64,000 nucleotides of DNA from an uncultured virus (IMG/VR IMGVR_UViG_3300027747_002957) (lineage: Duplodnaviria; Heunggongvirae; Uroviricota; Caudoviricetes), in IMG/VR virus record IMGVR_UViG_3300027747_002957; one strand, given 5' to 3'. This document shows positions 3,390-51,159 of the stretch, in pieces. The notes under the pieces were generated by a model. That model had not been told where the DNA came from and did no database searches. It worked only from the letters and a program-made list of their open reading frames with translations. How positions within the stretch are numbered: position 1 is the stretch's first letter; every line of letters begins with the position of its first letter. Position numbers and translations under genes: made by a program.

Positions 3390-3477
3390 TGGCGGAGCCC
3401 CAGGGAATCGAACCCTGTCAACCCTCACGGGTTGTACGGCTTAGCAAGCCGCTGCATTACCGTCCTGCCCGGACTCC
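3390..3477 (-). tRNA. tRNA-Ser(GCT)
   Basis: Cloverleaf, GCGGC-TTGCTAA-GCCGT, long variable arm, GCCA end. Confidence 0.95.
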
Positions 3478-8795: not shown

Positions 8796-9404
8796 ATGTA
8801 TTGTTCACATGGGCAAGATACCTGGATACGTGATTTCTTCGGGTCGCAAGTGGGCCGATGCTTGGAAATCGGAGCCCATGACGGACTGGCACAGAGTCAA
8901 ACGCTTAATCTCATAGAATCAGGATGGCATGCTGTGCTGGTAGAACCACACGAAGCCAACTGCCGTAGCATGCGCCAGCTTTACGAATCTCGCGGTGTCA
9001 TGGAACGCTGCACCATCATTCAGGCTGCTATAGTGCGCCCAGAATATCAGGGAGACACCGTTACCATTTATGACAAGCAGGATCCACATGGCCCTAATGG
9101 TCCAAGCCGCAAGAGCAGCATACGCAGCGATTGGTGGTATGAGTCTGAGCTATCCAATCTATATCAAACGGATGTTCCCTGCCTCACTTCAAAGAATCTG
9201 ATCAAGCAGATAGGCATGGAGATTGACTTCGTGACCATCGACGCGGAAGGACTCAGCTTTGAGATAGCGCGCCGCATGCCGTGGGCAAAGATGCCAACCA
9301 GGCTGCTGAGCGTAGAATCACCCCGAGACTGCATATCAATGATCGAATCTCAGGGTTGGCGCTGCTGCGAGATATTCCAAAACGATCTGTTTTTCACGCG
9401 CTGA
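8796..9404 (+). CDS. FkbM family methyltransferase
   Basis: SHGQD, LEIGAHDG, LVEP, IDAEG motifs. Confidence 0.85.
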   Translation: MYCSHGQDTWIRDFFGSQVGRCLEIGAHDGLAQSQTLNLIESGWHAVLVEPHEANCRSMRQLYESRGVMERCTIIQAAIVRPEYQGDTVTIYDKQDPHGPNGPSRKSSIRSDWWYESELSNLYQTDVPCLTSKNLIKQIGMEIDFVTIDAEGLSFEIARRMPWAKMPTRLLSVESPRDCISMIESQGWRCCEIFQNDLFFTR

Positions 9405-13014: not shown

Positions 13015-13074
13015 TACCAGGGTTAAATACAGGGTCCTGCGGTGCAGGACCCTTTTCCTTGGCGTAAATACCTC

Positions 13075-13998
13075 ATGGCGCACATCACCAACAACAGGCA
13101 GGGTTTTCTCAATGTCACCTGGGAAGTCACCAGCACCTGCAACTACAGCTGCTGGTACTGCGGTGAAGCCCAGCACGATGGCAAATACAGATGGCCTGAC
13201 CTAGATGTTGCGCTGCGTTGGTGGCACAGTATCTGTGACCAGCGACCCAGCGTGCACGCAGATCTCCTAGGTGGCGAACCAACCCTGTGGCCTGATCTGA
13301 GCACTTTCCTCAGGGATAAACCCCAGAACCTCACCGTGGAAGTCAGCACCAATGGCAGTCGCACGCTGCGCTGGTGGGCTGATGTTTGGCCGCTGATGAA
13401 CGGCGCTAGCATCAGCTATCATCCATCGCATGCTGACGTAGATCACATCTATGACCTCTGTGAGCTGCTCAGCGCTGATCCCAGCAAGATACTGCATCTC
13501 AGCCTCATGCTGGATCCCGATCACCTTGATGCGCTGCAGTCACTGTATGTTAGGCTGCTGAGGAGTGGCATGCGCATGACCTGCGATAGCAAGCAGCTAA
13601 CCGTGCGCAATGCCAGGGACCAGCAGAGCATAGAACAGACCCATCGTGATCAGCGCGTGCTGGAGATGATCGCAGGCAACCGTTTCTATCGCAGCTGGCG
13701 GGGCGGGCATCCGGGAGCACCAACTCGCAGCTGGCTGGATGGGGTTGAGTTCAAGACAGCTGACCTCAAGGCCCAGGGCCGCAACAGGTTCCGTGGCTGG
13801 ACCTGCACTGCCGGGCAGGACAGGCTGTTCATCTTAGCTGATGGCACGATCTACAGGGCAGGCTGCAGGCAGGGTGGCCAGATCTCGCAGCTGAACAGCA
13901 CTGCTCCGATAGACTTTGGTGCTCTAGGCACAGTGGTATGCGGCAAGGATGCCTGCTGGTGTGGTCCTGAGATCAGGCTGGAGAAGTGGCTGGATTAA
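13075..13998 (+). CDS. radical SAM protein with C-terminal Cys cluster
   Basis: CNYSCWYC, GGEPT, STNGS. Confidence 0.92.
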   Translation: MAHITNNRQGFLNVTWEVTSTCNYSCWYCGEAQHDGKYRWPDLDVALRWWHSICDQRPSVHADLLGGEPTLWPDLSTFLRDKPQNLTVEVSTNGSRTLRWWADVWPLMNGASISYHPSHADVDHIYDLCELLSADPSKILHLSLMLDPDHLDALQSLYVRLLRSGMRMTCDSKQLTVRNARDQQSIEQTHRDQRVLEMIAGNRFYRSWRGGHPGAPTRSWLDGVEFKTADLKAQGRNRFRGWTCTAGQDRLFILADGTIYRAGCRQGGQISQLNSTAPIDFGALGTVVCGKDACWCGPEIRLEKWLD

Positions 13999-14328: not shown

Positions 14329-14922
14329 ATGCTTGATTACTCAGAACTGAAATTGATCCATGTTGCCAGCCAGGGGCAGTTGATATGCGAACAGCATTAC
14401 GTTGACATGATCCAACGCGAATGCCAAAAGATACTGGCCAGTGGTCATAGATTGGCTGCCAACTACAGCTGGGATAACCTGCAGGTCCGAGAACACCAGA
14501 ACTTTGACATGCTGCTGCATGGTGATGAGATAGTGACTTGGTGCGGATTGTACAACGGCCTTAGATATCCCGCTGGAGTGTTCAGGATCATGAACAGACT
14601 CTATCTGAATCCGCTGTACAGACAGGCCCTGTATCCTGCCTATGCCAGAGACATGATCTATCCCTATCAGCTGGCACAGAACGTGGACAAGATCAAGGTA
14701 CTGTTCCTCAGCCGTGATGACATCAAGGGAAAATTCCATCTCAAGCGCTGGGTTAAATACCACTGCGGTGAGCCTGGTTGGCGCGTGAGCAAAAACATGG
14801 TACAGGTCAGTGACTGCAGGAAACGCAGCTGTTATCAGTACATCGCATTCAAGACCCGCGAACCAGTTGACTGGTTCCCAGACACAGTTACCGAAGCACA
14901 ATGGTTGGAGTTGCCAGAATGA
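14329..14922 (+). CDS. hypothetical protein
   Basis: 197-aa ORF coupled (ATGA) to the desaturase. Confidence 0.75.
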   Translation: MLDYSELKLIHVASQGQLICEQHYVDMIQRECQKILASGHRLAANYSWDNLQVREHQNFDMLLHGDEIVTWCGLYNGLRYPAGVFRIMNRLYLNPLYRQALYPAYARDMIYPYQLAQNVDKIKVLFLSRDDIKGKFHLKRWVKYHCGEPGWRVSKNMVQVSDCRKRSCYQYIAFKTREPVDWFPDTVTEAQWLELPE

Positions 14923-15731
14923 AAACACTATACCTATCCAAGTTCACCAAGTACATAGCCATACCGCAACACCTTCTGGGCGTGCTGGCTATCTATCTGT
15001 TTTTTGAACTACAGCTCAGCTGGTGGTGGCTCGCGCTCAGCTATGTGGGCTGGGTGGTGCTGGGCGTTTTTGGTGTGAGCACCATGTATCACAAGTACTA
15101 TTCGCACAGGGCCTTTGAGTTCAAACCTCAGTATGTCTGGGTTGGCAAGCTGTTCACGCTGCTGGGTGCGCTGTGTGGGCAGGGGTCACCCATCGGCTAC
15201 GCTGCTGTGCACAGGCTCTATCACCATCCCTATGCGGACAAGGATGAGCGTGATCCTCACAGCCCGCATGTGCACGGTTTCTGGCACAGCTACTATGGTT
15301 GGCATTTCAAACCAGCAGTGTTCCAGCTGCGCAAGCTCAAGGACGTGCTGGAAGATCCTTGGGCAACCTGGATACACAAGAACTACTATCGTATATGGTG
15401 GTGCGGACTGCTGATGCTGTCAGTGATAGATTGGCGCTTGGCGCTGTACGGCATGATCATACCAGGTCTGATACATGTGCATGAGATGAACATCCTCAAC
15501 AGCCTCAGCCACATGAAATGGTTTGGATATCGCAACTTTGACACAGATGAGCACAGCGTGAACAACTGGATATTTGGAGTGCTCAGCTGGGGAACTGGTT
15601 ATCACAACAATCATCATGCGGTGCCAAACACTTGGCACAATCAGGTGCGCTGGTTTGAGTTTGATCCATTCAGATACATCATGCCACCTCTGATAGCCAA
15701 GGGTCATGAACCACCGCAGATCAAGGGCTGA
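14919..15731 (+). CDS. fatty acid desaturase (delta-9/OLE1-like)
   Basis: His boxes HKYYSH, HRLYHH, DPHSP, HNNHH. Confidence 0.92.
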   Translation: MKTLYLSKFTKYIAIPQHLLGVLAIYLFFELQLSWWWLALSYVGWVVLGVFGVSTMYHKYYSHRAFEFKPQYVWVGKLFTLLGALCGQGSPIGYAAVHRLYHHPYADKDERDPHSPHVHGFWHSYYGWHFKPAVFQLRKLKDVLEDPWATWIHKNYYRIWWCGLLMLSVIDWRLALYGMIIPGLIHVHEMNILNSLSHMKWFGYRNFDTDEHSVNNWIFGVLSWGTGYHNNHHAVPNTWHNQVRWFEFDPFRYIMPPLIAKGHEPPQIKG

Positions 15732-15736
15732 ATGAC

Positions 15737-16516
15737 ATGCCCGCACTGAGCCTTTACGCACGCACATTGATGATACCGCTACATCTGCTGTTCGCAGCAG
15801 GCATCTGCCTGCTGCCATGGCACTGGTACGATCTGGCCATTGGTTTCCTAGCCTGGATGGTCATAGGTGCAGTGGGTGTTGAGATAGGTCTGCACAGGCT
15901 GTTTTCGCACAGGTCATTCAGCTGCAGCAAGACCATGAGCAGGATCATAGCAGTGATTGGCTGTTATGGAGCTCAATGGTCTCCCATTTGGTGGGTAGCA
16001 CTACATCAGGGCTATCATCATCCTCATGCAGACGGTGAGTCAGATCCTCACTCACCTAACAAAGGCCTATGGCATGCGTTCATGGGCTGGTATTTCACGG
16101 TCGATCCCAATGAAATAAATCTCAAGGCAGCCAAGCGCTTGCTCATGGATCCATTCCAGCTGGCACTGCACAGGCACTATCTCTGGGTATTCTGGACTCC
16201 AATTGTGCTGCTGGGTCTCTGTGACGCAGAACTATGCTTGTGGATTTTTATCATACCGGCACTGCTGAGCTTCCATCAAGAGAATCTGGTTAACCTGTTT
16301 TGCCATCTGCCTCGCTGGGGCTACAGGAACCACGACATCAGTGACGAAAGCTGCAACAATCTCTTGCTGGGTTGGTTCGCATGGGGTGCTGGCTATCACA
16401 ACAACCATCATGCCAAACCCCACACCTACTCATTTGGAGAGCGTTGGTTTGAACCAGACGTGTGTGGCATCTTGGTTCCGGCTATATTGACAGTTGATCG
16501 CGCACTGTTCCAGTGA
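15737..16516 (+). CDS. fatty acid desaturase (delta-9/OLE1-like)
   Basis: His boxes HRLFSH, HQGYHH, DPHSP, HNNHH. Confidence 0.92.
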   Translation: MPALSLYARTLMIPLHLLFAAGICLLPWHWYDLAIGFLAWMVIGAVGVEIGLHRLFSHRSFSCSKTMSRIIAVIGCYGAQWSPIWWVALHQGYHHPHADGESDPHSPNKGLWHAFMGWYFTVDPNEINLKAAKRLLMDPFQLALHRHYLWVFWTPIVLLGLCDAELCLWIFIIPALLSFHQENLVNLFCHLPRWGYRNHDISDESCNNLLLGWFAWGAGYHNNHHAKPHTYSFGERWFEPDVCGILVPAILTVDRALFQ

Positions 16517-17767: not shown

Positions 17768-18424
17768 CTAGACCAGACCAAGCTTGGCAAGATGTGCCAG
17801 GCTCTGTCTCACTATCTCAGCAGCAGTCTCTGTGACCAGCTGAGCATCAAACTCGCGTTGTATCATTATGGTAAACGGGCGCAGCCTCGGCTTTTGAGGA
17901 TCGCTTACCACGTGCACTTGGTTGGATGGCACGAAACCAGCATCCTGCCGTATCCTATCAAACAGGCTGCCCTTGGCTTCGTTCACTATGGGACCGTTGA
18001 TGTTCAACAGGTAAGGGAAGTAATCTTCGTTGATCATCCAGTTCTTGAAGAAGCTGATGTTCTTGAGGCTGCGCTCCAGAGCATTGCCCGGATTGTCCTG
18101 CTGATGCTTGTTCTCGCCTATGAACAAGGGCCTGATCAAACCATCGCTGCAGAGCACGGTGATGATCCCACCATCTGGCCTGCTGCTGCCATCGTTGCCC
18201 AGCTGCTCAGCTAGATGAGTGCGATCATAGCGAGCCAAGCTGGCAATGATGTCTGAATTCTTGACGTTGCCAGCGTGAGCTAGCCTTAGATCGCTGTGCT
18301 GCGCACGAAGCTGAGCAAAGAGGTGATCCACGCAATCACGGAAGTTGGCTTCCGTGTTGTTGGACCAGTTGATCCAGATCCTTGCGTTGCGATTGTTCTC
18401 GCTGAGCTGCGCACTGTTTGCCAT
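17768..18424 (-). CDS. EcoRI-family endonuclease
   Basis: RPDGGI, GENKHQ, GNALERSLKNI, FPY correspond to EcoRI KPDGGI/AEAKHQ/GNAIERSHKNI/FPY. Confidence 0.8.
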   Translation of the reverse strand: MANSAQLSENNRNARIWINWSNNTEANFRDCVDHLFAQLRAQHSDLRLAHAGNVKNSDIIASLARYDRTHLAEQLGNDGSSRPDGGIITVLCSDGLIRPLFIGENKHQQDNPGNALERSLKNISFFKNWMINEDYFPYLLNINGPIVNEAKGSLFDRIRQDAGFVPSNQVHVVSDPQKPRLRPFTIMIQREFDAQLVTETAAEIVRQSLAHLAKLGLV

Positions 18425-18507: not shown

Positions 18508-19404
18508 GTGATGTTAGCTTACGATTGGCACTACGACAGCATCAGCACAGCACCTGTTGAACAGAGGTTCACCATGACCTACATGACCCTGAGCCGTGAA
18601 CCGCTGAGCTGGCGTTCTGAGATATTGGCTACGGCACGGCACATTGCTGACTCTGAGACCAAGCCATTGGTGGTGTGTCTCAGCGGCGGCATAGACAGCG
18701 AAGTCATAGCCCGTGCCTTCTTGGAGCTCAAAGTGCCATTCAGTGCTCTCACTGCTGAGTTCACGGACGGCAGCAACAGTCACGACATCTGTCATGCCAA
18801 ACAGTTCTGCGCAGACTATGGCATAGAGCAGCACCTGTTAAGGCTGGATCCCGCGCAGGCTTTTGGCCCTGGCATGGAGCGATGGATCAGCGATGGCTAT
18901 GAAGCCTGGAGCCCCTACAGATACCTGCAGCTCTATCTCTTGGAGCGTGCCCAGCGACTGGGAGCCTGCAGCGTGCATGGCGGTGGCACTGACTGCCAGA
19001 CCTACTTCACCGTGTCAGATCAGATCTGCTACAAGCAGAACAGCGGTGTGGTATGTGCGCTGCAGTGGATGGAGCGCAACCATCAGCGACACTATCCCTA
19101 TTTCTACAGCAGCACTCCCGAGATGGTCGCGGCCTATCAACAGATTGATTTGATAGCTGTGATGCTCAGAGATCCCAACTACTTCCGTAGTTTTTCTCGC
19201 AGCAGCTATAGCCCTGAGAAGCAGATAGTGATGCATGCTCAGTGGCCAGCAATGACTCCCAGGCCCAAGTATGATGGTTTCGAAAACATCAGAGCACAGG
19301 CTGACAGCGTGAGCCGCAGCATGGCCGAGCGTTTCCCGCATCTCTGCAAGAGATGGTTTCCCGTCAACGACATGAGAGCCCAGCTGGGCATGGAGCCATT
19401 ATGA
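18508..19404 (+). CDS. PP-loop (N-type ATP pyrophosphatase-like) protein
   Basis: VCLSGGIDS motif. Confidence 0.75.
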   Translation: MMLAYDWHYDSISTAPVEQRFTMTYMTLSREPLSWRSEILATARHIADSETKPLVVCLSGGIDSEVIARAFLELKVPFSALTAEFTDGSNSHDICHAKQFCADYGIEQHLLRLDPAQAFGPGMERWISDGYEAWSPYRYLQLYLLERAQRLGACSVHGGGTDCQTYFTVSDQICYKQNSGVVCALQWMERNHQRHYPYFYSSTPEMVAAYQQIDLIAVMLRDPNYFRSFSRSSYSPEKQIVMHAQWPAMTPRPKYDGFENIRAQADSVSRSMAERFPHLCKRWFPVNDMRAQLGMEPL

Positions 19405-20087
19405 ACCTCTTGGAAACCTATGACGACTGGGTCAGGGCCCAGCAGCACAGGAACAACACTTGGTATGACACGCTGTACGTGATCAGCCACAGGCGCTCGC
19501 AGCGAGTATGCCACGTTACCACTAAGATCAGCGTGGCACGCAGCCTCATGGATCAGGAATATGGTCAGCTGCGCATGAGCATGAACAACAAGAAGGGCCT
19601 ACCAGCAGACTTTGACATGTCACGACCGTGGTTGGCCATGTGTGACAAAGCTGCCAAGGTAACCATGAGCGAGTTCATGGACTCAGACGTGGCTCACTAT
19701 CAGCTGCTGAGCGACCGATACTGGGCCATGGATCTGCTCTATCATGACATACTGCGGCAACATATCGCCTGCCTAGCACATGATCTGCCGCACCAACAGA
19801 GGATCTATGCTGCCAAGGCGTCACAGGCGCAGCTGGTGCTGACCGGAGAGTCTGATCACAGCCTTACCTATCATGTGCATGACTGGGCAGATATCAGTGG
19901 TCTGGATCTGGAGTCTGCTGCCAGAGACATAGCGTTCCAGCAACAAGAAGATGATCTCTTGCTGGCACAGATAGAACAGCTGAGGCTGAGATATCAGTGT
20001 CGCATCAAGGCTGCTGCTGACCGTGATCAGCTGGCAGAAATAATCAACCAGTTCAAGCATGAGTGTACCACCAATGGCAACGTGTGA
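19401..20087 (+). CDS. hypothetical protein
   Basis: ATGA-coupled ORF between two PP-loop genes. Confidence 0.75.
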   Translation: MNLLETYDDWVRAQQHRNNTWYDTLYVISHRRSQRVCHVTTKISVARSLMDQEYGQLRMSMNNKKGLPADFDMSRPWLAMCDKAAKVTMSEFMDSDVAHYQLLSDRYWAMDLLYHDILRQHIACLAHDLPHQQRIYAAKASQAQLVLTGESDHSLTYHVHDWADISGLDLESAARDIAFQQQEDDLLLAQIEQLRLRYQCRIKAAADRDQLAEIINQFKHECTTNGNV

Positions 20088-21198
20088 CGGCCTCTACTAC
20101 TACAGCTCGGCCAATCTGTTCTTTGGTGACAGGTCGCGCATGGACCAGCTCATGGCCGATGACCAGCATGGACTGCGGCTGTTCCGCGATACCTTCATCG
20201 GCTGGGGAGGCAAAGCCAACGTGTGTTGGCATGATAGATCGCTGTCCATAACCACGCCCTTTCGCATGGTGACCATGCCGGGCATGGAGCTACCACGATA
20301 TCGCAAGATTGATCAGAGCCTAGAACAGATTTGCCATGATAGGGCCATGGATCTGCTGGTACAGGCAGAAGCAGCTGACAAGCAGCTGTTGGTGATGTAC
20401 AGCGGTGGCATAGACAGCACGCTGATGCTGGTCAGTCTCATGAAGGCAGCCAGCCCAAAGCAGCTGCGTGCTAGGGTCATGGTGCTGCTGAACCAGCAGA
20501 GCCGCAACGAGAATCCCAGCTTCTATCGTGATCACATCATCAGCAAGTGCAGCATCGATCACAGCCAGTTCTTCCATCGTTACCTAGGCGATGATCGCTA
20601 CATCACAGTGACCGGAGAGTTCAATGATCATCTCTGGGGCAGCCAGCAGCTGGTGGACAGCAGTCACATATTCACGGAACAGCCCTGGGACCTAGCCATG
20701 TGCAGCGATCTGGTAGTGCGTTGGTTGTGTGAAAGATACGACACAGTGACCGCAGAGCGCATCTACACCGTGCTGGCACAGGTGGGCAATGCCTGCCCAT
20801 TCAGCCTTGACAGCGTCTATGCGTGGTACTGGTGGATAGTTTTCACCTGCAAGTGGCAGCAGACCTTCTGGCGGGGAGCTGCGTTCGCACACGCTGAACA
20901 GCGCCACAAGCTGATACCAGAACAAAACTACACTGCTTTCTACAGCACAGAACCATTCCAGCTATGGCACATGAACCATAGGCACGAGCTGCGAGACGAC
21001 AAGTGGCTCTGCAAGGATATCATCCATGATTTCAACGGTGACAGCGACTATCGCAACCGCAAGACCAAGCAGGGCAGCCTTGGTTGGCTGCTGCAGAAGA
21101 AGCCCAGTGCCACGGCCATCGACAGTGACCTAGCATGGCATGATAGCTGGAACAACGATGCTTGGTTGAACCCTGACAACAGCTGGAGCAGAGCATGA
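20059..21198 (+). CDS. PP-loop protein (asparagine synthetase-like)
   Basis: MYSGGIDS, VTGEFNDHLWG. Confidence 0.78.
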   Translation: MSVPPMATCDGLYYYSSANLFFGDRSRMDQLMADDQHGLRLFRDTFIGWGGKANVCWHDRSLSITTPFRMVTMPGMELPRYRKIDQSLEQICHDRAMDLLVQAEAADKQLLVMYSGGIDSTLMLVSLMKAASPKQLRARVMVLLNQQSRNENPSFYRDHIISKCSIDHSQFFHRYLGDDRYITVTGEFNDHLWGSQQLVDSSHIFTEQPWDLAMCSDLVVRWLCERYDTVTAERIYTVLAQVGNACPFSLDSVYAWYWWIVFTCKWQQTFWRGAAFAHAEQRHKLIPEQNYTAFYSTEPFQLWHMNHRHELRDDKWLCKDIIHDFNGDSDYRNRKTKQGSLGWLLQKKPSATAIDSDLAWHDSWNNDAWLNPDNSWSRA

Positions 21199-23415: not shown

Positions 23416-23443
23416 ACAATAGCAGGTTTACGACAGCTGTCAA
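23416..23443 (-). promoter_or_regulatory. sigma70-type promoter TTGACA-N16-TATTGT
   Basis: Upstream of the ncRNA/tRNA block. Confidence 0.65.
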
Positions 23444-23999: not shown

Positions 24000-24031
24000 G
24001 ACGTATTTACTGTTAATTGCGCAACTGCATG

Positions 24032-24105
24032 TGGTACCGCCTAGTGGAATTGAACCACTGTATCGAGCTCCACAAACTCGCGTTCTACCATTGAACTAAG
24101 GCGGC
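24032..24105 (-). tRNA. tRNA-His(GTG), alphaproteobacterial type
   Basis: CGAGT-TTGTGGA-GCTCG; no G-1, G1-U72, A73. Confidence 0.93.
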
Positions 24106-24113
24106 ATCATGGG

Positions 24114-24260
24114 TTGGACCAGCCGTGTGCGCACCCGCTGTGGTTCAGAGCCATACGCTGCGCTGCCTCTACCGCTGGTCCAAGATTGATGAGCATCACC
24201 GTGGTTCACGCAGCTGGTCGGCCCCATGGCCGGGCTGTGATCCTTCTACCGCTAGCTCAA
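24114..24260 (-). ncRNA. two tandem ~70-nt related stem-loop elements
   Basis: Both have a closing stem and AGCGGTAGA...CACGG. Confidence 0.5.
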
Positions 24261-24262
24261 AC

Positions 24263-24338
24263 TGGTTGGCACAGATGGACTCAAACCATCGACCTCACGA
24301 TTATCAGTCGTGCGCTCTATCTGCTGAGCTATGCGCCA
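24263..24338 (-). tRNA. tRNA-Ile(GAT)
   Basis: CACGA-CTGATAA-TCGTG, CCA end. Confidence 0.93.
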
Positions 24339-24537
24339 AAAAACTTCTAGTATCCCACAATAACGTCCGCTTGGATCTGGTGTTTGTCGATGTTCAAAAC
24401 ACAGATGCGGATTCAGTTCAAGTATCTGGTTGTGCAGGTGTGTCCAAACGGCCATGTTGTATTGTTCATAGGCTGTGACACTGCCCTGTTCATTGGTATC
24501 TATGATCAGATATCCCTGCATGTCTGTTTCCCTGTAT

Positions 24538-24613
24538 TGGTGCTCCCAAGGGGATTTGAACCCCTGTACCCAACGTGAGAGGCTGGTATCCTAGGCCGCT
24601 AGATGATGGGAGC
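24538..24613 (-). tRNA. tRNA-Glu(CTC)
   Basis: CCAGC-CTCTCAC-GTTGG, CCA end. Confidence 0.93.
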
Positions 24614-24615
24614 AA

Positions 24616-25611
24616 CTATTCTATGATCAACCTATCTCTGAGGTTGTGTTGGCAGTGCCGCACACATTCTGTGTTGGTCTGCATGTTGGTGTGAAGCCAA
24701 GCGAACCAATCGCCGCTGACAATGTCTTCGACGCTCGCATGGTGAAGATCGTGATGTGCCTGCTGTCCGAGATCACTGATTATGGTCTCGTAGCGAGTTT
24801 TCACCCTGGTATTTGACAGATCTATGAAACAGCAAGGGCTGACCTCACCACGATGGTTGATGAACAGCTCTGGCGGTTGCTCTTCTGGTGCCAGAGCTGG
24901 ATTTCTTGTCAGGGCCTTGCAGGTCACGCTGGCCTGTGAATGATAATCGCCGAGCTGTGTGACCTTGATGCCTCTGTCATTGGCATCGCGACCGCTGTAT
25001 CTAATGAGCAGCTGCTGGAAACCTTCAATGCTGTGCAGAGCTCGGATCTCAGCTAGCTGATGTTGGTTGTGCTCAAACACCACGAACTGCCAAAAAGCCA
25101 TGCCGCCTGCGCCGATATATGCTCTCCAGTTCTGCTGTAGCTTTTGCCAATCGCTGCCAATCCTATAGATGTGATTGGTGTCTTCCAATCCGTCTATGGC
25201 AAACACTGTTCTCAGTCTGCCATCGCTGTGCCTGCTCAGCTGTCCCAGTTCTTGGAACCACCTAGCTGTGCGGGTGCTGCCGTTGGTGTGTATGAGAACT
25301 CGCAGTTGATCGTTGATGCCAAGCCAGTGGGTGATCATACCAAACAGCTGGGGATGCATGCTGGGATCATCTATGTTGCCGCTGAACACCACTCGCTGTA
25401 GATTGGGCCACTGTCCAGCCACGAAACTCTGTTGTAACAGCTGCAGATCCAGGAACTGATCATTCATCTGCTCTCCCAGTCTCAGCCTCGTGGCCCGCGA
25501 GCAGCCGGGGCAGCTGAGATTGCAGAAATTGCTGATCTGCAGGTGTATGGTTTTGGTATCAGCCGCAGTGCGAGGCCATCTTTGCATGGCGTTACTTATG
25601 GTGGCAAGCAT
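24616..25611 (-). CDS. radical SAM/SPASM-like protein
   Basis: CNLSCPGC, HTNGS, FAIDG, C-terminal G.V.PCC. Confidence 0.9.
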   Translation of the reverse strand: MLATISNAMQRWPRTAADTKTIHLQISNFCNLSCPGCSRATRLRLGEQMNDQFLDLQLLQQSFVAGQWPNLQRVVFSGNIDDPSMHPQLFGMITHWLGINDQLRVLIHTNGSTRTARWFQELGQLSRHSDGRLRTVFAIDGLEDTNHIYRIGSDWQKLQQNWRAYIGAGGMAFWQFVVFEHNQHQLAEIRALHSIEGFQQLLIRYSGRDANDRGIKVTQLGDYHSQASVTCKALTRNPALAPEEQPPELFINHRGEVSPCCFIDLSNTRVKTRYETIISDLGQQAHHDLHHASVEDIVSGDWFAWLHTNMQTNTECVRHCQHNLRDRLIIE

Positions 25612-25721
25612 GGCTTGCTCACCGTTGAATCTCCCCGCCGAAACCACCTATTCGGCCCTTTGGCTCAAGTACTGGTCGGGGGCTGCTCTTATGCCAAGGG
25701 AGCAGCGGCCTGTCAGATAAT

Positions 25722-25751
25722 AAAAAACCCAGGAATCTTTCGATTCCCGGG
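25722..25751 (-). terminator. intrinsic terminator (putative attenuator)
   Basis: CCCGGGAATC-GAAA-GATTCCTGGG followed by T6. Confidence 0.9.
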
Positions 25752-25785
25752 GTGCTTTGGACGATTGTGTTGCTGTTTTGCTACA

Positions 25786-25938
25786 CTATCCTCTACACCC
25801 CTCTGCTGGCAATTCCACGCCGCGATCTAAGCCACAGAGCTGCCCATTAGCTACTGCCAGCCAAATGGTATTGGGCATGGCTTGATAGCTATGTTGCAGT
25901 GTAAAGCTCGGTGATTTAGGCGCGAAACTTGTCATCAT
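25786..25938 (-). CDS. putative leader peptide (50 aa, all 20 amino acids)
   Basis: MMTSFAPKSPSFTLQHSYQAMPNTIWLAVANGQLCGLDRGVELPAEGCRG; lies between promoter and terminator; not in the ORF track. Confidence 0.7.
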   Translation of the reverse strand: MMTSFAPKSPSFTLQHSYQAMPNTIWLAVANGQLCGLDRGVELPAEGCRG

Positions 25939-25944
25939 GATCTA

Positions 25945-25972
25945 TTTATACAGCCTAGGGAGAAACTGTCAA
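25945..25972 (-). promoter_or_regulatory. promoter TTGACA-N16-TATAAA(TA) at head of tRNA region
   Basis: -10 box lies 6 nt before the leader ATG; also matches the T4-type late TATAAATA. Confidence 0.8.
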
Positions 25973-26000
25973 CCGAAAAGTCAAAAAGCTCAGATCTATC

Positions 26001-27407
26001 TCAGTTGCTGGCATCTAACCAGCTGACCAGCAGCGGATCCAGGTGATCCCTGTAGCTCTGATCACGGCTGCGGTCGAACACAGTGATCTCTGTGAGCATC
26101 TTGTGCTTGTCCTCGGCATTGCGATCAATGGCTGCGCTGATCAGCTTGACGAGGTTGCTCCTGGTGTTGCTGTTGACGTGGCTGGGTATCACCATGCCTT
26201 GTATCCTCGACAGGGCCTCCTGCAGCAGGTGCACCGGCAGCTTGTCCAGGGCCGTGCCACGGGTCACTGGCATGATCTCATCAAAGTGCAGGTGCACGTC
26301 GTGGTACAGCGTGGCAGCCCACTGATAGTACTGATCGATGTTCAGTATGTTCAGAGCGCTGACCACCGTGACCATGGTCAGGCCCCCGGGCTTGATGCGG
26401 CTGACGTAGGCCCTGATGTTGTTGGTCAGCACGTCGAACTGTGCAGGATAGCGTATGTACTCATAGACCTTGCCAGCTCCATCTACGCTGAAATCATGCT
26501 TGTTCACCTTGAAATGGCTCAGCATGTCCAGCATTTCATCCGTCATGATGCTGCCGTTGGTATGGAAGTGCAGCTCCGTCTGGCTGGCCGCTCCAGTCTC
26601 GATGTAGCGCTTGAGAAGGTCCAGCATCTTGCCATCGTAGAATGGTTCGCCGCCGCTGGCGCTGATGCGCTTGATGGCATGCGTGTTCTCCATCAACCAC
26701 TGCCACTGGGGATTGTCCAGTCCTGGACCGTGGAAGGCAGTGCTCTGTCCCCATCGCCCCATGCTGTCGGCCACTTGCTGCTCCATGCCGTGCTCTTCGA
26801 AGTACTTCTGATCTATCAGCAGGCTGTGGCTGTTGTAGGGAGAGCACATGCGGCAGCGCAGGTTGCAGAGGCTGCTGGTGAACAGGTCCACCTCTTCCAG
26901 CTTGGGCACGGTGATCCTGTGCTGGCTCTTGCGGTTACGGTTCTGCCTGTAGCTGCTGATGCCCAGATCTTCCTGGCGCCAGCACACATCACAGCGAGGG
27001 TCCCTGATGCCAGCTGCCAGGTTGCTGCGCAGATCCTCCCAGTTTTCATGGTGGAATATCTGGTCCGGGGTCAGCTGATGCACATTGGGCACGCCCATGC
27101 CACCTCTCTTGACCCCGCCTGTGTCCAAGTTACGCATGTTGCAGCAGGGCATGGCATCGGTCAGCTTGGTACCAGCGTAGCGTTTGAAGCTGACCTGGGA
27201 CCAGGCATAGGCACAGTAGGTATCGCTTTGTTCTGCTGCTTGGTCAGCCGGGCTCAGGCTCTGTAGGCCACGGTGTCCTTCCAGCACGGCCTGCGCATCA
27301 GCATCTGGCACTTCTAGGGACAGCAGCCCTGGGCCAGGCTCAGCCTGTTGTCCCATGGTCAGGTGTCTTATCAGCAAGCTATCTGGTTCGTACCATGCCC
27401 AGGCCAT
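26001..27407 (-). CDS. radical SAM protein with N-terminal twitch/SPASM-like Cys domain
   Basis: YC.YAW...PCC...CDVC, then CNLRCRMC, GGEPF. Confidence 0.92.
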   Translation of the reverse strand: MAWAWYEPDSLLIRHLTMGQQAEPGPGLLSLEVPDADAQAVLEGHRGLQSLSPADQAAEQSDTYCAYAWSQVSFKRYAGTKLTDAMPCCNMRNLDTGGVKRGGMGVPNVHQLTPDQIFHHENWEDLRSNLAAGIRDPRCDVCWRQEDLGISSYRQNRNRKSQHRITVPKLEEVDLFTSSLCNLRCRMCSPYNSHSLLIDQKYFEEHGMEQQVADSMGRWGQSTAFHGPGLDNPQWQWLMENTHAIKRISASGGEPFYDGKMLDLLKRYIETGAASQTELHFHTNGSIMTDEMLDMLSHFKVNKHDFSVDGAGKVYEYIRYPAQFDVLTNNIRAYVSRIKPGGLTMVTVVSALNILNIDQYYQWAATLYHDVHLHFDEIMPVTRGTALDKLPVHLLQEALSRIQGMVIPSHVNSNTRSNLVKLISAAIDRNAEDKHKMLTEITVFDRSRDQSYRDHLDPLLVSWLDASN

Positions 27408-27493
27408 CTACACCGCCAATTCTCTCTGTGCTCTGTATTTAATGCTCTTAAATACCATACCACTGAACATTATCTACATGAAAGACATGACAC

Positions 27494-28066
27494 ATGGCTG
27501 ACTTAACCAAACTGGATCTAAAGTTTGACCTGTCTGATCTGCTGGGAGGATTAGAGCAAGTGCTGAGCATCTGTGATTGGCATCCGGACCACAGGCAGAT
27601 AGGCATCACGCATGCGCTGGCCCCAGATACCACAGCAGCTTGGCACGATGCCACTGGCAGCCTCACTTATAGGTGGGGACCTGATCACATGGACGAGCAT
27701 GGCCAGCTGCGGCGCCAGGAGATTGTGCGCAAGGAATCAGACTTCACCAACTTCGTCAGCGAGTTTGAGCATACTGTATGGCGACATGTCTATGACCAGC
27801 TCAGCGCTCGCTATCAGCTGGGCAGGATCAGGCTCATGCTGAGCCGTCCCAAGACCTGCCTCAGCTGGCACAGGGACCACGAGCGCCGCATACACATACC
27901 ACTGATCACCAATCAGGGCGCACGCTTGGTAATAGAAGACACTGCGCATCACCTGCCAGCTGATGGCAGCGTGTATCTGGCCAACACCACTCTGCATCAC
28001 ACGGCTTTCAATTCGGGTTTGGAGCCTAGGATACACATGGTGGCCTGCATGCTGGGCACGCGCTAG
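27494..28066 (+). CDS. Asp/Asn beta-hydroxylase-like 2OG-Fe(II) oxygenase
   Basis: WHRD...RIHIPL.TN...HTAFN....RIH. Confidence 0.8.
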   Translation: MADLTKLDLKFDLSDLLGGLEQVLSICDWHPDHRQIGITHALAPDTTAAWHDATGSLTYRWGPDHMDEHGQLRRQEIVRKESDFTNFVSEFEHTVWRHVYDQLSARYQLGRIRLMLSRPKTCLSWHRDHERRIHIPLITNQGARLVIEDTAHHLPADGSVYLANTTLHHTAFNSGLEPRIHMVACMLGTR

Positions 28067-28435: not shown

Positions 28436-29602
28436 ATGGACACCTTTTGCGGCAGAAGTTGGAACGACTACAGGATAAACCTAGACCAAGGTTGGCAGAT
28501 GTGCTGCAAGACGCCTTGGCGCAGCATGGATGAAGGCGTGGACTGGTTCAACAGTACCGAGATCAGGGAACGGCGCAGCGCTCACCTCGAGGGTAGCAGG
28601 CACAGCGACTGTGCCACCTGCTGGAAGCTGGAAGATCGAGGACAGATCAGCCTGAGGCAGCTGGAAAAACCCTTGGATTACGTGCCCAGCAACACCGATG
28701 CTGTGGGATCAGCGCACCTAGACATAGAGCTCAGCAACATCTGCGATCTGGCCTGCAGATACTGCGACAGCAGAGCCAGCAGCATCTGGGCCGAGCGGCA
28801 CCAGCATCCGGCATACAACAAGGCTTCGCGCGGTTCAGCTGAGCAGCGCAGGCTCAAGTTCGACAGGTTCAAGGCATGGCTGGTGCCGCGCTTGGACATG
28901 TTCACTGGCATTAGCTTCAGCGGCGGAGAAGCGCTGCTCAACGACGAGCTGTACGAGCTGCTGGAGCAGCTGGATCTGCGCGATCAGAGGATCAAGATCT
29001 GCACCAATCTCAACACGCCACCAGCCTACATGTTTCGCCTGCACAGGGTGCTTGATCGGCTGCTGGCACATGGCGTCAAGGTCACCTTCAGGATCAGCAT
29101 GGACGGCACTGGCACCAGGAACGATTGGCAGCGCGACGGCAGCGAATGGTCAGTGATGGAGCGCAACTGGCATGACTTGGGCAGCAGAGACGTGCAGCTC
29201 AACGTGGCCCTGACCACCACACCACTGACCTTGGAGAGCATGTGCGATGCTGGACGATGGGTAGCTGACAACGCGCAGGGCCTGCGGCACAAACCCACCT
29301 GGGAACGGCCTGGCACCGTGCTGGGACCTTCTGCGCTGGACCCCATGCCCTGGATGAGCAGTTACAGGTCCGAGCTGGCCGAGATGCGACAGCTGGTGTG
29401 CGATGATCGCGTTAACGTGGACCGCAACGTGCTGCTGATCTTTGATAACTGGCTGCAGCTGGACGCTGGACCCCACGATGCCAAGATGACTTCGCATATG
29501 GTTCGCTGGCTTGACGCGCATCAGGCCAAGTGGGGCGGCGCAGACTGGCGCGGCGTCTATCCAAAGCTCAGCTCGCTGACTGATTCCATACTCAAAAGCT
29601 AG
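28436..29602 (+). CDS. radical SAM protein (N-terminal Cys domain)
   Basis: FC..SW...MCC...CATC; CDLACRYC; GGEAL. Confidence 0.92.
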   Translation: MDTFCGRSWNDYRINLDQGWQMCCKTPWRSMDEGVDWFNSTEIRERRSAHLEGSRHSDCATCWKLEDRGQISLRQLEKPLDYVPSNTDAVGSAHLDIELSNICDLACRYCDSRASSIWAERHQHPAYNKASRGSAEQRRLKFDRFKAWLVPRLDMFTGISFSGGEALLNDELYELLEQLDLRDQRIKICTNLNTPPAYMFRLHRVLDRLLAHGVKVTFRISMDGTGTRNDWQRDGSEWSVMERNWHDLGSRDVQLNVALTTTPLTLESMCDAGRWVADNAQGLRHKPTWERPGTVLGPSALDPMPWMSSYRSELAEMRQLVCDDRVNVDRNVLLIFDNWLQLDAGPHDAKMTSHMVRWLDAHQAKWGGADWRGVYPKLSSLTDSILKS

Positions 29603-33630: not shown

Positions 33631-34821
33631 ATGGACACCTATTGCGCGAGAAGCTGGAATTACTTCCTGGTTGATCTAGACAAGCTTGAGCAGAAAATGT
33701 GCTGCAAGACCAAATGGAAACCCATGGATCCAGGGGTTGATTGGTTTAACGGCACAGATATCAAGGAGCGCCGAGCTGATCATCTACAGGGCAAGCGTCA
33801 CACAGACTGCGAGCACTGCTGGGAGATAGAAGACACGGGGCATTTCAGTCCTCGCCTAGCTGTGCGCAGACCAGACCCCATACCAGACTCCCTGGAAAGT
33901 TATAGCCATGGCATGCTTGAGCTGTCAGTGGGCAATACCTGCGATCTAGCCTGCAGGTATTGCGATAGCCGTTACAGCACCATCTGGGCAGCACGCACGC
34001 AAGACAAGAGCAATAACAAGGAAGGCAGAGCCAGCTACAAGCTCGAAACACGCACACAGCAGGCCATAGATCAGTTCTATGCTTGGCTTGACACAGAGAA
34101 AGACAAGCTGTCTAAGGTGCTGATCACAGGTGGTGAACCTCTGCTGATACCTGATACCTATGAACTGCTAGAGCGAACGCGGTTTCGAAACGTTAAGATA
34201 ATTTTTAACACCAATCTCAACACACCTGATCACTATCTAAACCAGATAGAAGAGGCCATAGATAGATTGTTAGATGATGGCAACAAAGTTCTTTTCAGAG
34301 TCAGCGTGGATGGCGTTGGTCAAAAAAATGATTGGCAGAGACAGAATTGCGACTGGGACAGATGGCGCGACAATTGGTTTCGCATAGGATCTCGTCCGGT
34401 ACGCATGAAAGCTGCACTCACTCTCACTCCATTGACTCTAGAAGGCATGCACGAACTAGCAGAATTCGTGCTGGACAGTGGACCAAAACTGCATCATGAG
34501 CCAACATTTGAAGTTGTGAACGTGGTAACTTGGCCTCGCCCTTTGAACGTCACTGAATGGATACCTGCCTACAAGCATGAGATCGCAGAATTTGGTCGCA
34601 TAGTTGAGCAGCAGCGTGATTATGGGCAAAAAGAACCAATCAAGCGGCAGATCAGCACTTGGTTAAGCCTAGAAGATGCATTACCTAGTGCCAAGCAGGT
34701 GCGCAGCTTCACAGACTTCCTCGATGGCAGCCAAGCCAGATGGGGCGGCGGTGATTGGCGCACCATCTATCCCAAGACAGCTGCTATAGCACAGCGTGTA
34801 CTGGATCAAGGACCAGCCTGA
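33631..34821 (+). CDS. radical SAM protein, paralog of 28436-29602
   Basis: MDTYCARSWN start, CDLACRYC, GGEPL; shared C-terminal WGG.DWR..YPK. Confidence 0.92.
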   Translation: MDTYCARSWNYFLVDLDKLEQKMCCKTKWKPMDPGVDWFNGTDIKERRADHLQGKRHTDCEHCWEIEDTGHFSPRLAVRRPDPIPDSLESYSHGMLELSVGNTCDLACRYCDSRYSTIWAARTQDKSNNKEGRASYKLETRTQQAIDQFYAWLDTEKDKLSKVLITGGEPLLIPDTYELLERTRFRNVKIIFNTNLNTPDHYLNQIEEAIDRLLDDGNKVLFRVSVDGVGQKNDWQRQNCDWDRWRDNWFRIGSRPVRMKAALTLTPLTLEGMHELAEFVLDSGPKLHHEPTFEVVNVVTWPRPLNVTEWIPAYKHEIAEFGRIVEQQRDYGQKEPIKRQISTWLSLEDALPSAKQVRSFTDFLDGSQARWGGGDWRTIYPKTAAIAQRVLDQGPA

Positions 34822-47155: not shown

Positions 47156-47856
47156 TCCCTGCCCGACACAGTCATGGGCACTGGGGCTCTGTGAGATTCG
47201 AACCAATCCCAGCCACGCTTGAGCTCTAACCAAAATGCCAGATTGTGATCATGTGTCAGACCCAGCATGCGCCAGTCAGTCATCCTGAAAGGGTAGATCT
47301 GCAGCTGCACTGACTGCTGTCCATAGCGTGCGCTATCACGCACAGCAGCATAGATCTCTTCCATGCTGGCATCTGTCATGGCATAGCAGCCTGCGCTGCT
47401 GCAGCCTCCGTGTATCATCACGTCACTGCCAGTGTAGCCCCAGTTGCGATCAAACTGGTTGGGATAACCAGTGTTGATGCTGAGATGCTCGCGGCTGTGT
47501 GGGTTCAAGCTGCTCACAGTGATGCTGTAGAAGCCTTCTGGTGCCTGTCGATCTCCCTGGCGCCGCTTGGGACCCAGACCACCGCTGAACCTGCAGATGG
47601 GATAGGTCTTGGCAAGTATCCATGCACCATCTCGCTGCTGTCGCCACAGTTCCAGCTCGTGGTCTTCCTTGATTATGCGCAGCAGCACTGCCCCCTGTGC
47701 GTCCACGCCCTCGGGCTGAGTGTTGATGCTCTGCTGCACGGTTCCTCGCCGAGGATCATGCCGATCAAACTGCTGGACCTCGGGTACAGTGCTGAGGCTG
47801 GCACAGCCACCGAGCAGCGTGGTTAACAGGACCACCCCTGCCTGCCGCGCGTTCAT
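47131..47856 (-). CDS. L,D-transpeptidase-family lipoprotein (YafK/DpaA-like)
   Basis: Lipobox [23 protein letters not shown]. Confidence 0.88.
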
Positions 47857-49322
47857 TGGTCCAAGATCGCTGACAGGATGTCCTTGGCACGCTGTGGGTT
47901 CTTGAGACGCTCCAAGGCTTTGTTTTCAATCTGGCGCACGCGCTCACGAGTGACGTTGAAGCGATTGCCGATCTCTTCCAAGGTATACTCTCGCATGGTA
48001 CCGATGCCGAAGCGCATGCGCAGCACGCGCTCTTCTCTGCTGCTCAGTCCTTCCAACACACCGCCTATTACCTCGGTGATCTCTGCCTTGGCGATCTGCT
48101 CAAACGCATTCTCAGATTCCGTGTCTTGGATGAGATTGCCCAGCTTGCCCTCTTCTTCGTCGCCCACGGGCGTCTCCAAGCTGATTGGATCCTTGGCCAC
48201 TCGCAGCGTGCGATTGATCTTTTCCACGTCACAGTTCAGCATCTTGGCCAGCTCTTCCACGCTGGGTTCATGTCCCGTGACAAACAGATGTTCCTTGGTG
48301 GCTTTCTGTATCTTTTTCAGCGTGTCCAACACGTGGCTGGGGATGCGGATGGTGCGATTGCTTTCAGTGGCTGCCTTGATGATGGCCTGTCGGATCCACC
48401 ATGTGGCGTAAGTTGAGAACCTATAGCCCAGCTGCCACTTGAACTTCTCCACGGCCTTGAGCAGGCCGATATTGCCCTCTTGGATGAGGTCCAGCAGCTG
48501 CCCACCGTTATAGCTGTTTTGGTTGTACTTCTTGGCCACTGAGATCACCAAGCGCAGGTTGGCCTTGGCCATGGCTGCGATGGCATCGTCCTTGACCTTG
48601 CTCTGATGGCGCAGCACTCGCACTGCGGTGCGCAGCTCGCCCACTGGCAATCCAGCAGCGTCTGCCTGTTCCTGCATCATGCCCACCCAGTGTCCGATCT
48701 CGTTGGCTTTCTGCTTGAGCTTGTCCCACTTCTTGCCCTTGGTATCCTGCAGCCATGTCATGTGCTCATGGCCCACATAGCGTTCCAAGAAGTCATTGCG
48801 ATCGATGCCACAGTCCAGCGCTAGCCGCATTAGCGCACCATCGCCCTCCAGCAGCTTTTTATTGGTTCCCTGCAGGCGCTCCATGATCATGCCGATGCTG
48901 GCAGGCAAGAGATTCAGCTCATTGAACGCGGCAATCAGCTCGTCCTTGGCAGCTTTCTTGCTGGTATCGCTGAGATAGCTGGCACAGAGATCGCGCACGC
49001 CGGTCAGCTGTGTGTTGAGCTCTTCGCTGAGCGCGCCATCTTCGTCGCCTTCAAGATCAAACACCGTGTCAACGGCTCTGGTGCCATGCTGTATGTCAGC
49101 GATCCAACCGTCGATGGTCTGCACAGTCATGGGCACAGCAAACAGCGTGTCCATGATCAGCTGCTTGCTGCTTTCGATGGTCTTGCTGAACTCGATTTCC
49201 TTGGCATGGTTCAGCAGTGGTGTCTTGCCCACTTCCCTTAGATACAAGCGCACGGGATCGCTGCTGGTGCTCTCGCTGCTTTCTCGTGACTTAGCGACCT
49301 TCTTGCTGGGCTGTTTAACCAT
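47853..49322 (-). CDS. rpoD: RpoD-like sigma70 factor (lacking region 1.1)
   Basis: [52 protein letters not shown]. Confidence 0.93.
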
Positions 49323-49567: not shown

Positions 49568-49681
49568 CTGTCTCTCCGCTGCACCGTTACCTCTATTATA
49601 TAGCGGCGTGATCTGTGGTTTACAACGAGCCCAATCAAAAATATAATGGAATCTCCGCACTGGCCTAAGGTTAAATATCTG

Positions 49682-51106
49682 ATGTCTCAGCTCATATTAT
49701 GGAACATGCCAGCCACATATGATAGCACAGCCAGTGCTGTGAGACCTCTTGGACCACACAAGCTGGCTAGCTGGTTGCGGCAGAATGGATATGCTGTCAA
49801 GGTGATAGATTTCGCAGGCTGCATGAGCCTGGCAGATCTGGTTGCCATCACGGAAAGATGGATCGATCACACCACCCTGGCCATAGGCGTCAGCACCACT
49901 TTCTTCCCCAACGAAGATCCTCAGGCTAGATCGTCAGGCCAGGCCATAGAACAGGCATTGCCCATGCCAGATTGGGTCAGAGCAGGCCAAGCTGCTGTGG
50001 CGGCCAAATACCCTGGCCTGCGTTGGGTCATGGGCGGAACTCGAGTCAACCAATTTCTACAGCCTGGCTGGACTGGTTTCACGGGTGCCGGCGAAGATCA
50101 GATGCTGGCATGGTTGGATGAGACCAGCCAAGCAGCTGGTCAGACCAGGCCACGGTTCGATATCACCACCAGCTGTGGTCCCGTGTTCACCGACGACGAT
50201 CACATAGATCGCTGGGAAGTGATACCGATCGAGCTGGGCCGTGGCTGCATGTTCCGCTGTAGGTTCTGCAGCTATGAATATCTGGGCAAGACTCCTGGCA
50301 CCTATCTGCGCAGTGCTGACAGCATCAAAGCTGAGATCATGCACTACCATGAGCGCTGGGGCGTCACGAGGTTCTATTACATCGACGACACTGTTAATGA
50401 AACAGTGGAAAAGGTGCGCATGCTCAGGGACATAGCTGCCAGCGTGCCCTTTAGACTGGAATGGATCGGCTACATCAGGGCTGACTTGGTATGGGCACGC
50501 CCCGAGACTGAACAGCTGTTGCTGGAAAGCGGCCTGCGCAGCACTTTCATAGGCATAGAAAGCTTTGAGTCCAACAGCAGCAAGATGATAGGCAAGGGTT
50601 GGTCAGGACTGCACGGCAAGGAATGGTTGCTGAAGATGCAGCAGCGGTGGGAAGGCAAGATCAACTGGGCGCTGGGACTGATAGTGGGTCTACCTGGACA
50701 GACAGAAGCACAGCTCGAAGCTGATGGCCAGTGGTTGATTGACAACAACATGAACAATTGGCGCTGGGCTGCGCTGTGATCAGTTCCAGGCATGTTTGAA
50801 AGCGAGTTCAGCCGCAACAGTCAGAAATACGGTTTCAGCTTCCCTGATCCCACTCAGAGCTGGGAGTGGGCACACCAAGAAAGTGGCTGGAACCTGACCA
50901 AGGCACGCAAGCTGGTCATGAAATACACTCGCGCACATCGACCACTGATGAAGCAGGCTGCTTGGCCACTGGGGGATTGGGCTAGCCTGGGATTTGAACT
51001 GGATCTTCTCATGCAGGAAAACTGCAAGACCAGCCCATACCTACCCATCCTAGCAGAGCGCAAGCTAGCGTTCGTGGAAAATTACGTTGCCCACAGCCTG
51101 GCTTGA
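49682..51106 (+). CDS. B12-binding (class B-like) radical SAM protein interrupted by an in-frame TGA (50777-50779)
   Basis: GRGCMFRCRFC, IDDT.N, IGIES, IVGLPG; frame continues after TGA into SEFSRN..KYG. Confidence 0.75.
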
Positions 51107-51159
51107 TAGATCAGCCCAACTTTATATGCTATAATAAATCACGACCTTGGAAACGATCA

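Follow-up and report, generated by a model that had tools for sequence, protein, structure and literature searches.

The stretch analysed here, hereafter the window, is 64,000 nucleotides (nt) of DNA from an uncultured giant lake phage of the Caudoviricetes (IMG/VR record IMGVR_UViG_3300027747_002957) and carries at 25722–25972 a compact element, all of it read on the minus strand, in which a promoter precedes a short open reading frame (ORF) and an intrinsic terminator, with the tRNA genes of the phage lying further downstream. Judged by its sequence and by those of its relatives, this element is probably a transcription attenuator operated by ribosomes, with a leader ORF in which all 20 amino acids are sampled. 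The promoter consists of a −35 hexamer TTGACA (25972–25967), preceded by a T-rich stretch, and, after a spacer of 16 nt, TATAAA (25950–25945), which with the TG at 25952–25951 forms an extended −10 element, TG-n-TATAAA (25945–25952). The final base of TATAAA is not the usual T, and the promoter was therefore missed by a consensus scan; the combined −35/−10 motif has a single occurrence per viral record searched. An ATG (25938–25936) follows 6 nt past the −10, and the canonical start, 7 nt past the −10, would coincide with its A, so that the ORF (25786–25938) would be leaderless. It comprises 50 sense codons and TAG, and our recount agrees with an earlier reading of the window made from its letters only (the sequence-only reading): 39 codons are distinct, all 20 amino acids occur, and the Pro and Ala codons are represented in full (four each), along with four of those for Leu. 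There are no codon runs, six of the 20 amino acids are present only once, and the two Cys codons, at positions 35 and 48, are not consecutive. The terminator (25722–25751) has a 10-bp stem including one G-U pair and a GAAA loop (25751–25728), followed by T6 at 25727–25722; it, like the promoter with its 16-nt spacer and the ATG 6 nt on, matches the description given by the sequence-only reading. A weak promoter-like site within the ORF (TTGCCA-16-GATAGT, 9/12 matches) was set aside, as clades II and III of the relatives described below do not retain it.

The end of the ORF can pair with the segment that overlaps the base of the terminator. The sequence-only reading had proposed pairing of GGGGTG (25801–25796) with CACCCC (25754–25749), enclosing GGA/TCC and GTGT/ACAC pairs, and folding with ViennaRNA reproduces it: a 7-bp helix between a 5′ arm GGGGUGU (25795–25801; codons 46–48, 6–13 nt ahead of the stop) and a 3′ arm GCACCCC (25749–25755) closes a nested stem-loop (25760–25793) that contains the stop codon, and the GGA/UCC and GUGU/ACAC pairs form. 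The last three nt of the 3′ arm are the first three of the terminator stem, and the alternative fold leaves a 7-bp remnant of the terminator that stands three bases off the U-tract. Among 12 relatives the two arms are paired in all 12, and the terminator shows compensatory changes in three pairs. Both conformations were folded, as the sequence-only reading had suggested, and the local minimum-energy fold is the alternative hairpin, with a shortened terminator detached from the U-tract, in 9/12 of these relatives. The body of the ORF is itself predicted to fold as a long hairpin. Over 43 bases comprising the C-run, terminator and U-tract (window 25718–25760; L037:13–55), the window and the record G002 are 100% identical, their genes being otherwise 65–84% identical or unalignable; recombination or very strong constraint could lie behind this identity.

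Relatives of the element were found by several routes. A word-indexed protein search returned five proteins of 48–50 residues with 78–90% identity to the leader peptide, and pattern and back-translation scans yielded the divergent locus L001, two viral loci and 19 metagenome loci. When these are aligned, the promoter, an ATGATG start 6 nt past the −10, the frame, the G-run, the C-run and the terminator are kept amid unrelated upstream flanks. TTGACA is retained in all aligned relatives; in clade I the −10 is either invariant or TATAAG and the ATG keeps its position 6 nt beyond it; and the frame stays open through 3-nt indels and a TAG-to-TGA switch. A pattern built on the hairpin arms led to the distant clade III (L050, L068, L071), with frames of 43–45 codons and 30–36% identity, where ATGATG begins 6–7 nt past a −10. 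In this clade all four C of the terminator foot are taken by the alternative hairpin, and the inner region has another sequence with a nested hairpin still present. Finally, a pattern drawn from the core of the structured RNA that lies beyond the terminator matched at least 121 viral contigs, from which 80 loci were fetched (L076–L155). An ORF of at least 28 codons ends before an intrinsic terminator, upstream of the structured RNA, in 71 of these 80, and four of the nine loci without ORF and terminator lack upstream DNA. Across 69 distinct leader ORFs the stop precedes the terminator arm by 24–39 nt (median 32). The conserved unit for which the sequence-only reading had advised searching related phages is thus present, in about 20 close loci and then in 71/80 viral loci. 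An ORF-derived pattern gave eight extra loci (L025–L031, L033) that proved to be chance matches. No DNA match was found among INPHARED phages, which returned only distant radical S-adenosylmethionine (SAM) matches, and a search of viral contigs with the radical SAM protein of the window gave no locus.

The start of the leader varies more than its end. Clade IV leaders have a 5′ untranslated region of ~60 nt, and leaderless initiation is therefore not universal in the family. In L001 the leaderless position holds a two-codon mini-frame, ATG-TTG-TAA (L001:2785–2793), and the main frame begins ~45 nt later behind AAGG. The G-run is kept in L001 despite the different reading frame there, and its conservation is therefore at the RNA level. 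Two or three tandem near-perfect sigma-70 promoters (11–12/12) precede the leader at L084:33–246 and L122:115–240. Elsewhere in the window, the genes at 17768–18424 (−), 14329–14922 (+) and 18508–19404 (+) begin 5–6 nt past a hexamer resembling a −10, too close to it for a ribosome-binding site to fit; one of them, within the tRNA array, codes for an EcoRI-like endonuclease. The phage may thus use leaderless starts often, though GAGG-type sites are found at many of its other genes.

We then examined the arm pairing across the whole family. RNAalifold, applied to 31 nascent 3′ regions aligned with MAFFT, gave zero pairs, the arms being misaligned, and duplex folding against shuffles was used instead: the 3′-terminal 32 nt of each ORF, together with the stop, were folded against the terminator 5′ arm plus the six bases ahead of it, with shuffled 5′ windows as the control and L092 excluded as a mis-called ORF. 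The 69 distinct sequences averaged −15.65 kcal/mol compared to −7.73 for the shuffles, with p ≤ 0.05 in 67 and p ≤ 0.01 in 52; for the window sequence the values were −15.6 and −11.1 (p = 0.025). The family contains 60 distinct arm pairs, among them GGGGUGU:ACACCCC, GGGGUCC:GGACCCC, GGGUUC:GAACCC and UCUCAGGG:CCCUGAGA, which overlap 3–8 nt of the terminator arm, so that the covarying antiterminator pairs that the sequence-only reading had hoped to see are borne out. This covariation bears directly on the possibility that the locus is a free-standing small gene or ~215-nt RNA at the edge of the array, acting in trans, with the downstream genes transcribed from other promoters. The bracketing of the ORF by a promoter and a strong terminator would suit such a unit, and trans functions of a leader peptide and an attenuator RNA are reported for Sinorhizobium peTrpL/rnTrpL. 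However, a unit of this kind leaves the covariation between ORF end and terminator arm (67/69) unexplained, and we regard it as unlikely.

The composition of the leader peptides is also hard to reconcile with a free-standing gene, which would not explain why the 20 amino acids are relocated yet complete at 30–36% identity. All 20 are present in 60 of the 76 distinct leader peptides (36–58 residues, frames longer than 58 codons having been trimmed to the next ATG), with 19 in 11 peptides, 18 in four and 16 in one. In simulations that drew residues from the family's own pooled composition, clusters at 50% identity were expected to hold all 20 in a mean of 0.9 cases, as against 14 of 22 observed (0/2000 simulations reached 14), and clusters at 70% identity in 1.5, as against 28 of 40 (0/2000). 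Column shuffles gave a mean of 1.0 for seven representatives, all seven of which hold the full set (0/20000), and 1.63 for clade III, where five of five do (12/20000); they are uninformative for the closely related clade I. Where a peptide has lost the clade consensus source of an amino acid, the loss is compensated elsewhere in the same peptide in nine of ten cases, the sole exception being P0001, which is without Ile. The residues missing from leaders are mostly Val, Leu, Cys or Asp, and not Trp or His. By comparison, a neighbouring small gene (44–62 residues), used as a matched control, holds all 20 in 1/35 distinct proteins, with a mode of 16, and the background is 1.3–3.9% of windows of this phage's genes. 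Such all-20 content suggests that the frame is decoded. The diversity that the sequence-only reading had expected in relatives is therefore found at the level of amino acids (60/76); codon-level diversity beyond it is weak.

Taken alone, the window ORF is only moderately odd, largely through its absent codon bias, and its significance comes from the relatives. The comparison with 50-codon windows of this genome that the sequence-only reading had proposed was run on 9575 windows from Pfam-supported genes: 0.21% of them reach at least 39 distinct codons, 3.9% hold 20 amino acids and none combines the two. Among 4000 open mononucleotide shuffles of the ORF the corresponding figures are 4.7%, 7.2% and 1.1%. 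The leader frame is without the codon bias of the phage (log-odds −0.116 compared to 0.236 ± 0.117 in gene windows), and its G+C content at third codon positions is 0.48, compared to 0.66 in phage genes. Among close relatives the ratio of nonsynonymous to synonymous polymorphism (pN/pS) is ~0.5, and the variable columns number 12, 16 and 20 by codon position. Neither Pfam nor PHROG has a family for the leader peptide; when 1.84 billion representatives were searched with a profile, no credible remote homologue emerged, two matches (P0006, P0007) being taken as spurious because they are repetitive products that align to residues 17–39 only; and its AlphaFold model has a predicted local distance difference test (pLDDT) score of 53, with no confident fold. 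The peptide thus appears to be under weak protein-level constraint, the frame mattering and the peptide less so. These traits speak further against a free-standing gene. A further alternative is an RNA-only switch, in which the hairpin would answer a ligand, a protein or, as in a T-box, an uncharged tRNA, the ORF being incidental or RNA-stabilizing; nucleotide conservation is high even at synonymous sites, the G-run survives in the other frame of L001, and the ORF body is predicted to form a long hairpin. Yet, were the frame incidental, it would not remain open in 71/80 loci or hold all 20 amino acids in 60/76 peptides; the stop codon is always 24–39 nt ahead of the terminator arm, and Rfam gave no match at E ≤ 1, T-box included, in window 24000–28000 or in six relatives, apart from tRNAs and chance matches. 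We consider this alternative very improbable.

In the mechanism that we favour, a strong sigma-70-type promoter would start the RNA at the A of the AUG, and a ribosome would translate the 50-codon frame with RNA polymerase ahead of it. GGGGUGU, in the last codons, could pair with GCACCCC, whose 3′ end is the foot of the terminator stem. A ribosome that keeps time would cover or unwind the 5′ arm, so that the full terminator would form at the U-tract and the transcript would end at ~215 nt. One lagging anywhere in the frame, through a shortage of any charged tRNA or of general translation capacity, would leave the 5′ arm free to capture the terminator foot, and the polymerase would read on. In the window, the polymerase would go on into a structured-RNA remnant, then a radical SAM gene, then the first cluster of tRNAs; in most relatives, read-through would lead into the conserved structured RNA and directly from there into the tRNA genes. 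We infer the transcription start, translation of the frame, ribosome–polymerase coupling, the direction of the switch and the signal sensed. Arm pairing maintained through 60 sequence pairs and all-20 content are both predicted by a sensor of any aminoacyl-tRNA shortage, which, among the readings considered, appears to be the only one that explains the two together. We give an even chance to the wider proposal that this is a general translational-supply sensor of huge phages, in which a shortage of any charged tRNA opens the terminator and raises transcription of the structured RNA and the tRNAs. The shortage could stem from host shut-off, starvation or a tRNA-cleaving defence; an anti-nuclease role of the switch is speculation.

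What the switch would control can be read from the region beyond the terminator, where ~220 nt are conserved among relatives in two types, a and b; in most relatives, the terminator is directly followed by this structured RNA and not by a tRNA. Type b RNA, ~220–260 nt between the terminator and the tRNA genes (for example, L002:3219–3441 and L050:2566–2800), shows compensatory changes in 18/43 pairs (RNAalifold, eight sequences). Type a RNA (L005:1640–1880, L015:3215–3460, L011:3215–3440) ends in a tRNA-like domain with a 7–9 bp acceptor-like stem, a D-like arm and a T-arm and with no proper anticodon arm; ARAGORN did not call it at default settings, and a relaxed run on the spacers gave inconsistent calls. 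The downstream structured RNA has no match in Rfam, and a tmRNA (transfer-messenger RNA) or other known RNA family was rejected, as ARAGORN and Rfam found none in the element or the spacer. The window retains a type a remnant at 25648–25720 (−), whose first hairpin (25682–25706) has stem changes on both sides relative to L005, L011 and L015, and which ends after ~100 nt at a radical SAM/SPASM gene (24616–25647, −) that stands between the terminator and the first tRNA and is absent here in most relatives. The listed GTG start of this gene lies within the RNA remnant (25611–25647, −), and the ATG at 25611 is more likely its start. The idea that the ORF encodes the precursor of a ribosomally synthesized and post-translationally modified peptide between two radical SAM genes was dropped, such neighbours being absent here in most relatives.

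Beyond lie the tRNAs. ARAGORN finds 34 in the window, one fewer than the 35 of the sequence-only reading, all on the minus strand at 3390–24613 and, as that reading had it, covering all 20 amino acids. None lies in the 38 kb upstream of the element, all 34 being downstream; the counts upstream and downstream are 0 (in 20 kb) and 28 in G003, and 1 and 24 in G002, and same-strand tRNAs follow the structured RNA in 52/60 loci scanned. Completeness estimates of 30% for G002 (157,923 bases) and 17% for G003 (87,334 bases) imply genomes of ~500 kb. The first cluster of the window, Glu-CTC, Ile-GAT and His-GTG (24032–24613, −), recurs in the same Glu-Ile-His order in clade I relatives and could plausibly be reached by read-through, the next promoter-like site being at 23443: no promoter-like site with at least 10/12 matches occurs at 25785–24613 (−), and none was found between the terminator and the tRNAs in L002, L005, L084 and L122. 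Transcription of the downstream genes from promoters of their own, on which a free-standing leader gene would depend, thus finds no promoter-like site from terminator to tRNAs in four of the five loci scanned, although clade III does have a separate promoter before the next tRNA.

The RNA data consist of contigs from four lake metatranscriptomes of four studies; stretches without RNA contigs were not read as absence, and only the covered element and the uncovered upstream gene were contrasted. Contigs lie on the element at 25712–25919, 25755–25899, 25634–25799 and 25615–25732, and further on over the radical SAM gene, whereas none lies on 25964–26300, upstream of the −10. The X3 contig (25634–25799) bridges the terminator, and the X2 contig (25615–25732) reaches the downstream region. 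We take this as weakly suggesting an active promoter and the passage of some transcripts beyond the terminator. A free-standing gene or RNA would be in keeping with the contig that spans just 25712–25919 and with run X2, which has depth downstream and none on the ORF; it would not account for the contig that bridges the terminator.

Several observations weigh against the attenuator reading. The RNA contigs show neither ends nor strand, and RNA libraries can hold DNA; translation of the frame, the transcription start and regulated read-through are all read from sequence. The local minimum-energy fold keeps the full terminator in 3/12 relatives (L002, L007, L014); the overlap between the two hairpins is small in the clade of the window, at 3/10 terminator-arm nucleotides; and the changes seen there in the alternative helix are only one-sided. 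When the whole clade I leader is given to RNAalifold, the G-run pairs instead with an upstream CGCGCC (codons 6–7), a pairing that is broken in L019 and not seen in other clades. No anti-antiterminator is evident beyond this pairing in clade I, and the default without translation would be read-through, unlike in trp. At the peptide level, 16/76 leaders miss one to four amino acids, the synonymous diversity of the window frame, given its peptide, does not exceed a uniform draw (P = 0.12), and runs of regulatory codons are absent. Downstream, L050 of clade III has a separate strong promoter before its next tRNA, and in the window plus-strand genes break the array at 8796–9404, 13042–13998, 14329–16516 and 18508–21198, while minus-strand promoter-like sites lie at 23443, 22501, 10108, 8606, 6810, 6067 and 3536. 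With these at least seven further sites, whose −35 boxes are TTGACA or TAGACA, the plus-strand genes and the interposed radical SAM gene, the claim of the sequence-only reading that ~22 kb downstream are gated as one does not hold. What stands of the tRNA-array attenuator that it proposed is the unit of promoter, ORF, arm pairing, terminator and downstream tRNAs, together with the all-20 content; the single 22-kb unit and codon-level diversity do not.

Geometry adds to the points against. A preset arrangement, with the partner between −22 and +12 of the stop, occurs in 29/70 sequences, where 12.7 are expected. The window 5′ arm, 6–13 nt before the stop, falls inside the ribosome footprint; in the largest clade it lies 14–28 nt ahead of the stop, level with the rear edge of a terminating ribosome or behind it. 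An arm behind, and not under, the ribosome at the stop is what might be seen if translation of the leader served as a shield from Rho or RNase, for timing in the infection cycle or for coupling to the next small gene, and not for sensing. The same clade has a gene of ~51 codons, led by a Shine–Dalgarno sequence, directly past the terminator, and tandem strong promoters point to very high transcription, both of which would also suit such roles. None of them, however, predicts selection for full amino-acid coverage, which the neighbouring small gene attains in 1/35 proteins, and we judge them quite unlikely to be the explanation. About half of the loci have the ~51-codon gene, positioned past the terminator and ahead of the structured RNA (L079:786–941 (−) and 38 others); 31/35 distinct proteins have 14–17 amino-acid types, and the ~51-residue product of clade IV matched no Pfam or PHROG family above threshold.

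Across the window, radical SAM genes number at least 12, and several of them have SPASM or B12-binding domains (radical SAM genes and their neighbours are listed at 13042–13998, 24616–25647, 26001–27407, 28436–29602, 33631–34821 and 49646–60446). There are also genes for 2-oxoglutarate–Fe(II) oxygenases, an Asp/Asn hydroxylase, two fatty-acid desaturases, collagen-like proteins and a subtilase. A full-length sigma-70 gene is found at 47853–49322.

Leader-peptide attenuators are best known from amino-acid operons (trpL, hisL, leuL and pheL, and the multivalent thrL and ilv leaders). As in trp/his-type attenuators, a short frame lies ahead of an intrinsic terminator, the alternative hairpin shares nucleotides with the terminator 5′ arm and, as proposed here, ribosome position would pick the hairpin, a lagging ribosome leading to read-through. 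In contrast to them, the phage element has no runs of one or a few regulatory codons, most amino acids being present once or a few times; its frame has 36–58 codons compared to 14–33 in amino-acid operon leaders; the start would be leaderless in the window; no clear anti-antiterminator was seen, so that the untranslated state would read through; and the products are a structured RNA and viral tRNA genes and not biosynthetic enzymes. The attenuator as proposed thus works like the trp/his type but misses two of its defining features, codon runs and a clear anti-antiterminator. A T-box riboswitch (Rfam RF00230) recognizes a single uncharged tRNA by direct binding, with no ribosome involved. Like it, the phage element would be a terminator/antiterminator switch reporting tRNA charging, but it has a conserved ORF and no Rfam match. 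Cellular tRNA and rRNA promoters are under growth-rate and stringent control at initiation, through guanosine tetraphosphate (ppGpp)/DksA and nucleoside triphosphate sensing. Here too tRNA synthesis would be matched to translational demand from strong promoters with T-rich upstream sequence, sometimes in tandem, as ahead of the leader in L084 and L122 of the largest clade and as in cellular rRNA and tRNA operons; the phage control point, unlike the cellular one, would be a ribosome-read terminator. The nearest account in the literature searched concerns mycobacteria, where leaderless polycysteine short ORFs are reported to be cysteine-responsive attenuators (bioRxiv 10.1101/834739). A leaderless short ORF as first cistron, serving as a translation-dependent attenuator, is also what is proposed for the phage; the mycobacterial ORFs respond to one amino acid through consecutive Cys codons ahead of a cellular operon, whereas the phage frame has two Cys codons among its 20 amino acids and precedes RNA genes.

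Full-text literature searches returned no description of phage tRNA genes controlled by a leader peptide, and sensing of all amino acids at once, if real, is not known from any other attenuator. Through this family a widespread structured RNA without a name comes to light, found in at least 121 viral contigs, as the first product that would be transcribed after the switch, and the element is a compact natural part of ~250 nt that could report translational stress. A sensor of the whole pool would allow the question of why large phages carry tRNA arrays, and how these are expressed, to be tested with reporters. If the reading is correct, leader-peptide attenuation would be widened from one or a few amino acids to translation as a whole and would act on the RNA genes of a virus, providing homeostatic feedback on a virus-encoded tRNA pool.

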